This document shows, piece by piece, positions 48,956 through 50,029 of a DNA stretch of 64,000 nucleotides. The stretch lies in NCBI RefSeq assembly GCF_055900595.2, contig NZ_CM148325.1. One strand, written 5' to 3'. The translations under genes and the position numbers were made by a program. The notes beneath the pieces were generated by a model, which saw nothing but the letters and a program-made list of their open reading frames with translations, ran no database searches and had not been told where the DNA came from. The first letter of the stretch is position 1. Each line of letters opens with the position of its first letter.

Positions 48956-50029
48956 CTACTGATACTGTATGCCAGTATGTTTCATGCCTGCCGCTGAAAA
49001 CGGCAATATCCAGGGCCAGATATATTCACCATTCATATTTCTGCATTTCTGTACAATTTTCTCAGAAAGCGTCTCATCAATTCTTTCACGCAACTTCTCC
49101 TGCTGTCTTAAAATACTTTCGCATATTTCGAAATCATCTTCCTGCATCAGCATTTCGGCGCATTTAATGATTTCTGCCCGTTCATGCAGCACAGAGGAAT
49201 GATTATAGAGCCAGTTTACAAACAGCAATGCTTCCGGATATTGCCCCCATAACGGGTGGTATGTGGCATAATAATCTTCGGCAGTATCCGGACCGCCTGA
49301 AAAGTTATGCCATACAGCAAGTGGAAATGGATGCAGATTTCCGCACAGTATTTCTGCGATGTAAGTATTTGCCGCAAAGCCGCGACGAAATGCAGTTGCA
49401 GCTTTTACCAGTTCCCCATTAAGAAAATGCAGAAGGCCGAGTTCATACCAGTAAGGTGAAAATTCATCTGCATGTTCCTGCAGTATATGGCGTGCCTGTT
49501 CATGAGCGCCAGTGCGTAACAGTTCCGGTCCCAGTAGCCAGCGTGCACCATGATTATCTTCGGGATTGTAATCCAGTATTTTTTCAATGAGCATGATGGC
49601 ATCCTGATGACGCTGTAAATGTGCATTTGCCAGGATTGCCGCATAGAGGGCACGAAGAAAAGGTCGGTTGTCAGGATGTATCCAGATGATTCTGCCACTG
49701 AAACCTTCAGGGATAAGACGATTGCCAATTGCCAGCCCTTTAAGGGCAGCATTCAGCGCCTTACGCGGGGCATTCTGCTCCAGAAATACGTATGCCAAGT
49801 GAGCGTGTACATCAATAAAGTCATTCTCCTGTCGGGCAAGGCGCCTGAGTTTGTTGATGTAACTTGTTTCGCTGATTTCATCCGCATCGTATGCATCAAT
49901 CAGTTCTTCAAACTCATCCAGCAACGAGCCAAACCAGGTTTCCGGAAATATGAAACAGCCCTGGTTATCGTTCACTTCAAAGCGTAATTTGCCAGTCATA
50001 TTCTGAACCTGTAAAAAAGGATGGACCAT
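48956..50029 (-). CDS. hypothetical helical-repeat (TPR-like) protein, integrase-adjacent
   Basis: About 350 aa, predicted all-alpha with repeated A/L-rich helix pairs; no catalytic motif recognised; second ATG at 49999. Confidence 0.5.
   Translation of the reverse strand: MVHPFLQVQNMTGKLRFEVNDNQGCFIFPETWFGSLLDEFEELIDAYDADEISETSYINKLRRLARQENDFIDVHAHLAYVFLEQNAPRKALNAALKGLAIGNRLIPEGFSGRIIWIHPDNRPFLRALYAAILANAHLQRHQDAIMLIEKILDYNPEDNHGARWLLGPELLRTGAHEQARHILQEHADEFSPYWYELGLLHFLNGELVKAATAFRRGFAANTYIAEILCGNLHPFPLAVWHNFSGGPDTAEDYYATYHPLWGQYPEALLFVNWLYNHSSVLHERAEIIKCAEMLMQEDDFEICESILRQQEKLRERIDETLSEKIVQKCRNMNGEYIWPWILPFSAAGMKHTGIQYQ

Follow-up and report, generated by a model that had tools for sequence, protein, structure and literature searches.

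The window analysed here is a 64,000-nt stretch of contig NZ_CM148325.1 (NCBI RefSeq assembly GCF_055900595.2). It contains a gene for a TPR-like protein next to a P4-type integrase, and this gene is identified below as sisA. The sequence-only reading had placed the gene as the first one downstream of the integrase and separated by IS1 from the rest of the island. Both statements agree with our annotation, in which the integrase (50255..51520) lies on the same strand and an intact IS1 (47714-48481) follows on the other side. The features of the locus are as follows.

47714..48481, minus strand: IS1 on the cargo side of the integrase-sisA module, 768 bp, intact, with the InsA and InsB ORFs
48598..48796, plus strand: what is left, in degraded form, of the 3' part of a phosphoethanolamine-transferase/sulfatase-like gene; tblastn identity is 46-51%, spread over two frames
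48864..48884, minus strand: intrinsic-terminator-like hairpin about 70 nt past the sisA stop codon, a 9-pair stem with 6 GC pairs followed by a T-rich tail
48956..49999, minus strand: sisA coding sequence, 347 aa, 1,044 nt with the stop codon, for a ShiA-family TPR-like protein
50000..50029, minus strand: in-frame 10-codon upstream extension of the sisA ORF, whose translation is improbable as the homologues and RefSeq start later
50103..50131, minus strand: sigma-70 promoter-like site TTACCA-17-TATTAT in the integrase-sisA spacer, from a consensus scan only (9 of 12 matches)
50255..51520, minus strand: P4-type tyrosine integrase, intP4 of the pheV island (Pfam Arm-DNA-bind_3, Phage_int_M and Phage_integrase)
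51718..51736, minus strand: 19-nt tRNA-Phe 3'-end remnant, an att repeat; the agreement between the window and Nissle ends at 51736 and the two diverge from 51737

The longest-start version of the sisA ORF in the ORF list covers 48956..50029 on the minus strand and encodes 357 aa. The RefSeq start of the identical gene in Nissle 1917 is located 10 codons downstream, at the ATG at 49999, giving a product of 347 aa, and the alignments of sisA homologues also begin at this second ATG (MxxxLxFE...). Because both the homologues and the Nissle annotation begin there, the ATG at 49999 is probably the true start, so that the protein has 347 rather than 357 residues.

The integrase gene and sisA are encoded on the same strand with a spacer of 255 nt. 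The promoter-like site in this spacer and the terminator-like hairpin after the stop codon, both of which are consensus matches only, suggest that sisA is monocistronic and forms its own transcription unit. On the cargo side, 475 bp separate the sisA stop codon from IS1, which sits between sisA and papX. The transferase/sulfatase-like gene, of which a remnant is left in the window, is intact and convergent to shiA/sisA in the related islands L100, L102 and L103. A 76-aa ORF (48583-48813, minus strand), annotated in RefSeq as 'hypothetical protein', is antisense to this remnant (48598-48796, plus strand) and is probably spurious rather than a gene. The 768-bp IS1 is present in two identical copies in inverted orientation (45687-46454 and 47714-48481), which bracket papX (46711-47262). 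The left copy breaks papA, leaving the pap operon with papI, papB, a papA fragment and papX, and the same IS1/pap layout is annotated in Nissle 1917.

The integrase region is 100% identical in Nissle 1917 and in many ST131-type genomes. No tRNA gene was found by ARAGORN in the window and the full tRNA-Phe is missing. Beyond 51737 the sequence leaves the Nissle pheV locus and enters another island with ParDE-like and CP4-type genes. Since the integrase adjoins a mere tRNA remnant that is followed by a second island, the sisA island, judging by this order of sequences, occupies the distal place in a tandem array of islands. The second island (51737-64000) carries a ParE/ParD-like pair (51984-52570), a DUF4942 protein and CP4-type genes. 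The junction between the remnant and the second island is present in 342 complete E. coli genomes, with an identity of at most 97.1%.

Sequence comparison identifies the ORF as sisA of uropathogenic E. coli, a gene of the ShiA/SisA/SisB family that is already known. The qPCR primers for sisA in Hagan et al. 2010 (PMC2978726), which were designed on sisA of CFT073, each match the window once, without mismatches, in convergent orientation and inside the ORF (49758-49777, minus strand; 49475-49499, plus strand), where zero matches are expected by chance. The protein encoded in the window shares 83.6% amino acid identity with the S. flexneri homologue P0007, and the selC copy of E. coli B is 96.0% identical to P0007. 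We take P0007 to be ShiA. The published identities to ShiA are 83.3% for SisA and 96.8% for SisB (PMC13340028), and ECB_03517 of REL606, a ShiA-like protein of 347 aa, is 97% identical to ShiA of M90T (PMC3256949). sisA is described as a 1,044-bp gene with the PGAP label 'tetratricopeptide repeat protein' (PMC13340028), and one member of the 90%-identity UniRef cluster of the SisA protein is named 'ShiA-like protein'. The identification as sisA is thus based on the primer matches, the identity to the Shigella homologue and the gene length, which agree with the published gene. Six E. coli copies of the sisA family are all exactly 1,044 nt long and show dN/dS values of 0.11-0.29; this purifying selection indicates that sisA is a real gene and not a chance ORF.

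shiA was first described in the SHI-2 island of Shigella flexneri, and sisA and sisB ('shiA-like inflammation suppressor' A and B) are known from uropathogenic E. coli CFT073. The window gene belongs to the same family as SisA and SisB of CFT073 and ShiA of SHI-2, and corresponds to SisA itself. It shares with them the length of 347 aa (1,044 bp) and the slot right after a P4-type integrase at a tRNA gene. In contrast to the islands of these three genes, the island in the window is preceded by no more than 19 nt of tRNA-Phe, is arranged in tandem with another island, and has lost the neighbouring transferase gene to IS1.

The sequence-only reading had assigned no function to this protein. That no longer holds for the gene, which is sisA, has a name and has a published phenotype, but it is still correct for the molecular function. 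According to later papers that cite Ingersoll (2003, 2006) and Lloyd (2009), shiA and sisA/sisB mutants cause more inflammation in animal infection models. The same secondary citations state that ShiA dampens both inflammation and the innate T-cell response in Shigella models, and that in the mouse urinary-tract model the early inflammatory response of the host is suppressed by SisA and SisB. sisA transcripts were detected in the urine of 6 of 8 women with cystitis (PMC2978726), and shiA is reported to be anaerobically induced in Shigella. UPEC surveys score sisA as a virulence marker, and it was present in 72% of 227 isolates in one study summarised in PMC8336361. A 2026 STEC study deleted sisA jointly with hes and part of atoS (PMC13340028); because these were also removed, the deletion says nothing specific on sisA.

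One or more homologues are present in 2,533 of 5,426 complete E. coli genomes, in up to six places per genome. The order tRNA-integrase-shiA/sisA was found in six of eight inspected chromosomal E. coli contexts, at pheV in Nissle, at selC in an E. coli B derivative, E92, GPEC1405 and ES1, and at pheU in strain B1. An integrase-proximal slot in related islands, part of the sequence-only reading, is therefore seen at all three of these tRNA loci. The cargo past the integrase-shiA/sisA module is different in each of the six islands. The order tRNA-integrase-shiA has also been published for SE-PAI (PMC7371111). In one further inspected E. coli context, the integrase is replaced by IS elements. Integrases that are 90-93% identical to that of the window often occur without sisA, and the homology then stops exactly at the integrase stop codon. 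The O157:H7 copy (L098, about 7001-7863), located in the tellurite-resistance/iha island, has about 71% nucleotide identity, is fragmented and carries no full-gene annotation. This copy has apparently decayed.

Outside Escherichia the family is well conserved, with single-domain proteins of about 335 aa. The hosts include Beta- and Alphaproteobacteria, Verrucomicrobia, Myxococcota and other phyla, with remoter relatives in KSB1, Aminicenantes and others, and 91 clusters (50% identity) score E<1e-30. Homologues occur in non-pathogens, such as E. coli B and soil and marine bacteria, and in 80 plasmid records, while tblastn found no phage homologue in 50,697 phage records. The gene is always stand-alone, and no neighbour gene was conserved beyond close relatives in an all-against-all ORF clustering of 96 loci. 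A ribosomal S21 paralogue adjoins the Rhizobium rhizogenes copy, but it is confined to that species and was rejected as a partner. The same applies to rsfS-rlmH, which lie about 4 kb from the homologue in Oxalobacteraceae with synteny within this one family. Recombinase adjacency as a family-wide rule was ruled out, because among 79 species-level loci a tyrosine recombinase was located within 3 kb in 6 and a serine recombinase in none. A Silicimonas MAG (L051) has, besides the main homologue, another ORF with the ENRPFLR motif at a distance of about 6.4 kb (143-1573, minus strand). It is highly divergent, and the two may be paralogues carried by the same element.

Plasmids of Klebsiella, Morganella, Edwardsiella and Pseudomonas carry Tn3-family transposons in which a homologue (48-56% identical) is located between tnpA and tnpR. 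It is directly upstream of the resolvase gene and overlaps its start, and loci L006, L014, L015 and L017 are alike in this respect. In L014 (Klebsiella pneumoniae pKPC_CAV1193), the two genes share an ATGA stop/start overlap at 7020-7023, and the inverted repeats (2785-2849 and 7593-7657) enclose only tnpA, the homologue and tnpR, forming a minimal 4.9-kb transposon (2785-7657). The Tn3-family homologue is thus predicted to be translationally coupled to the resolvase gene in one operon. This arrangement is new here, with no description of it found in the literature searched, and so is the view of the family as a stand-alone gene that is also found in non-pathogens. The window copy is no such Tn3 passenger between tnpA and tnpR within inverted repeats, as it sits in an integrase island. 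Lima-Mendez et al. 2020 (bioRxiv 10.1101/848275) describe toxin-antitoxin pairs within the Tn3-family transposition module, which reportedly occupy a position comparable to that of the SisA homologues. The SisA homologue is likewise part of the transposition module, but it is a single gene without a toxin fold, and the window copy lies in a tRNA-integrated island rather than in a transposon.

The product of sisA is an acidic protein of 40 kDa. Its AlphaFold2 model (mean pLDDT 93.4, pTM 0.88) contains 17 helices and two short beta-hairpins, and is predicted to form an uninterrupted helical solenoid of the TPR type, closed at the C-terminus by a helical cap. Pfam gave weak TPR matches only (TPR_19, 26 bits versus a cut-off of 25). 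A profile match and a stacked helix-turn-helix solenoid, which together define the TPR superfamily, are thus both found in SisA. The earlier description of a helical TPR-like protein of about 350 residues fits well with this almost wholly helical model, the length of 347 aa and the TPR matches. No signal peptide or recognisable secretion signal was found in SisA, and no catalytic, DNA-binding or effector domain (nuclease, NTPase, TIR). Residues in the surface motifs ENRPFLRA, NPxDNQG, YIAE and the C-terminal PW are invariant across phyla. The invariant positions of SisA include N111, P113, D148, R162, Y185, R205, Y213, W251, W263, R274 and W330, of which N111, P113, D148, R205, Y213 and W330 are counted among the groove residues.

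Structure prediction had been proposed as a check in the sequence-only reading. It was run, and the fold of the resulting confident model comes closest to the Tcf25 domain of eukaryotic TCF25 and yeast Rqc1. The global fold similarity of SisA to the helical domain of Rqc1/TCF25 exceeds that to generic TPR arrays, where the Rqc1 coordinates (9ofv) are an AlphaFold model fitted into density. The Rap-type TPR regulators (RapI of ICEBs1 and Rap of pLS20) have a structural score below that of Rqc1, and no sequence-level relation of SisA to Rap was found beyond generic TPR. The sequence identity between SisA and the Tcf25 domain is about 14-16%. Rqc1 has a disordered basic N-terminal region, which contacts the 60S subunit (Rpl38 and rRNA ES27); in contrast, SisA is without this region and starts at the solenoid. 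Listerin and canonical ubiquitin are not known from bacteria.

The window SisA gave no match to Pfam Tcf25 (PF04910; gathering threshold 24.2 bits) even at E<=10. Two relatives in the core alignment pass the threshold (P0067, 25.1 bits; P0085, 26.0 bits), and members of a 281-aa subfamily reach 30.9 (P0103), 31.9 (P0104) and 43.1 bits (P0105). Their match is one collinear stretch covering profile positions of about 25-216. Across 70 diverse family representatives, PF04910 was matched at E<=0.01 in 23. When the SisA core family was compared with the Tcf25-positive subfamily by hhalign, the probability was 99.9% with an E value of 2e-35 over 252 columns, and the ENRPFLRA and NPxDNQG motifs are common to the core family and the 281-aa subfamily. 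This subfamily (P0103-P0108 and P0316-P0328; alignment A3) is metagenomic and is without the C-terminal third.

In sequence searches of the PDB with profiles A1 and A3 and with P0105, generic TPR proteins fill the best 60 matches and outrank Rqc1, so the link to Tcf25 could reflect convergence of solenoids. No eukaryotic TCF25 was among the best 120 matches of a profile search in a large protein collection, where only bacterial relatives were listed. The set of negative controls for Pfam Tcf25 was small. With a natural TPR lipoprotein there was no Tcf25 match among the 25 of 26 matches listed, and an idealised 8-repeat consensus TPR matched 89 Pfam families, of which 25 were listed, which makes it uninformative as a control. 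Taken together, we consider a specific evolutionary link between the SisA family and the Tcf25 domain somewhat more probable than its absence. No paper linking shiA/sisA with TCF25 or Rqc1 was found in the literature search.

The explanation we prefer, to which we give a probability of about 90%, is that the gene is sisA of the ShiA family, that it forms its own transcription unit, and that its product acts as an adaptor with one conserved partner, the effect on inflammation being downstream. SisA would be a cytoplasmic protein-protein adaptor that binds this partner, and the lower inflammation would be a downstream consequence of the binding. An adaptor role is the most likely one, because SisA has no catalytic or DNA-binding domain, is always encoded by a stand-alone gene, and has surface-motif residues that are invariant across phyla. 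The Tcf25 domain, its nearest structural relative, is itself an adaptor for ubiquitin and a RING domain. The partner could be bacterial, which is favoured by the distribution in Tn3 elements, plasmids and non-pathogens, or it could belong to the host, which is favoured by the phenotype and the TCF25 analogy. Homologues exist in free-living bacteria and in E. coli B, which is non-pathogenic, and this is a poor fit to a dedicated host-directed role.

Several other explanations were weighed against this adaptor role. SisA could be an accessory protein of mobile elements, which binds a conserved bacterial component and aids establishment, maintenance or recombination, with the effect on inflammation being indirect. 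The recurrence of the tRNA-integrase-shiA/sisA order at pheV, selC and pheU with differing cargo argues for this role, as do the overlap of the Tn3-family homologues with the resolvase gene, the 80 plasmid records, the homologues in non-pathogens, and the location of homologues of other phyla near toxin-antitoxin, ICE and transposase genes. We nevertheless regard it as unlikely, because just 6 of the 79 loci have a tyrosine recombinase and 0 of 79 a serine recombinase within 3 kb, integrases with 90-93% identity often lack the gene, SisA has no DNA-binding domain, and some copies resemble ordinary chromosomal genes. The position next to a P4-type integrase had led the sequence-only reading to consider anti-phage defence or regulatory cargo in an integrase-proximal hotspot. 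The slot is indeed variable among close integrases, with the break at the integrase stop codon, and some distant homologues are located near AbiE, HipA, MqsRA, restriction-modification and Fic genes. However, 0 families of PADLOC-DB v2 were matched at E<=1, PHROGs gave 0 matches, and tblastn against phages found none. A single TPR scaffold without a nuclease, NTPase, TIR or other effector domain is also not expected for this role, and the gene stays with the integrase across islands, unlike hotspot cargo, which is swapped. Given that another phenotype has already been published, the defence or regulatory role is not supported by these results, and we judge it very unlikely. A fold search of BFVD with SisA returned nothing specific.

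A host-directed function was considered in the form of a TCF25 mimic, in which SisA reaches host cells, binds ubiquitin or RING ligases, and alters inflammatory signalling of the NF-kB type. The closest fold and family being the Tcf25 domain is consistent with such mimicry, and so is the reported phenotype of reduced inflammation. TCF25/Rqc1 holds the acceptor ubiquitin and the RING domain of Listerin as a non-enzymatic adaptor, with the strongest RING contacts of TCF25 made by helices alpha5-alpha6, residues 188-202 (PMC12047659, PMC12215860). On the other hand, neither a signal peptide nor another recognisable secretion signal is seen in SisA, many free-living bacteria have a member of the family, the N-terminal region of Rqc1 that contacts 60S is missing from SisA, and the Tcf25 link has itself only moderate support. 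UPEC and E. coli B are not known to possess a virulence type III secretion system, which also counts against mimicry. Altogether we think that mimicry of TCF25 in the host is improbable. A lone phrase in a review, 'ShiA (a putative quinone reductase)' (PMC7545054), would make ShiA an enzyme. No oxidoreductase, flavodoxin or Rossmann-type domain was found by Pfam and NCBIfam, and the confident all-helical repeat model has no nucleotide- or flavin-binding fold; a quinone reductase is therefore extremely unlikely.

A bolder version of the preferred adaptor role can also be formulated, although we hold it to be rather unlikely. SisA and ShiA would be prokaryotic members of the TCF25/Rqc1-domain proteins that hold a ubiquitin-like or RING-type partner, or the family would mainly serve mobile elements and act on a bacterial target. 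If holding of the TCF25 type is true, the inflammation-suppressor phenotype, now 20 years old, would gain a testable mechanism through host ubiquitin signalling. If the role in mobile elements is true, the virulence label of the family would be secondary. In either case, relatives of the eukaryotic Tcf25 domain would exist in bacteria.

For annotation, a 'TPR protein, function unknown' is best taken as shiA/sisA when it lies beside a pheV, selC or pheU integrase. The reported phenotype of the ShiA family comes from in-vivo work, and the Tcf25-like model offers concrete experiments on its mechanism. The presence of homologues in about half of the complete E. coli genomes, in soil and marine bacteria and in the Tn3 resolvase operon suggests that the primary role of the family may be a bacterial or mobile-element one rather than host manipulation. 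If this is true, it would change the reading of sisA as a 'virulence factor'.
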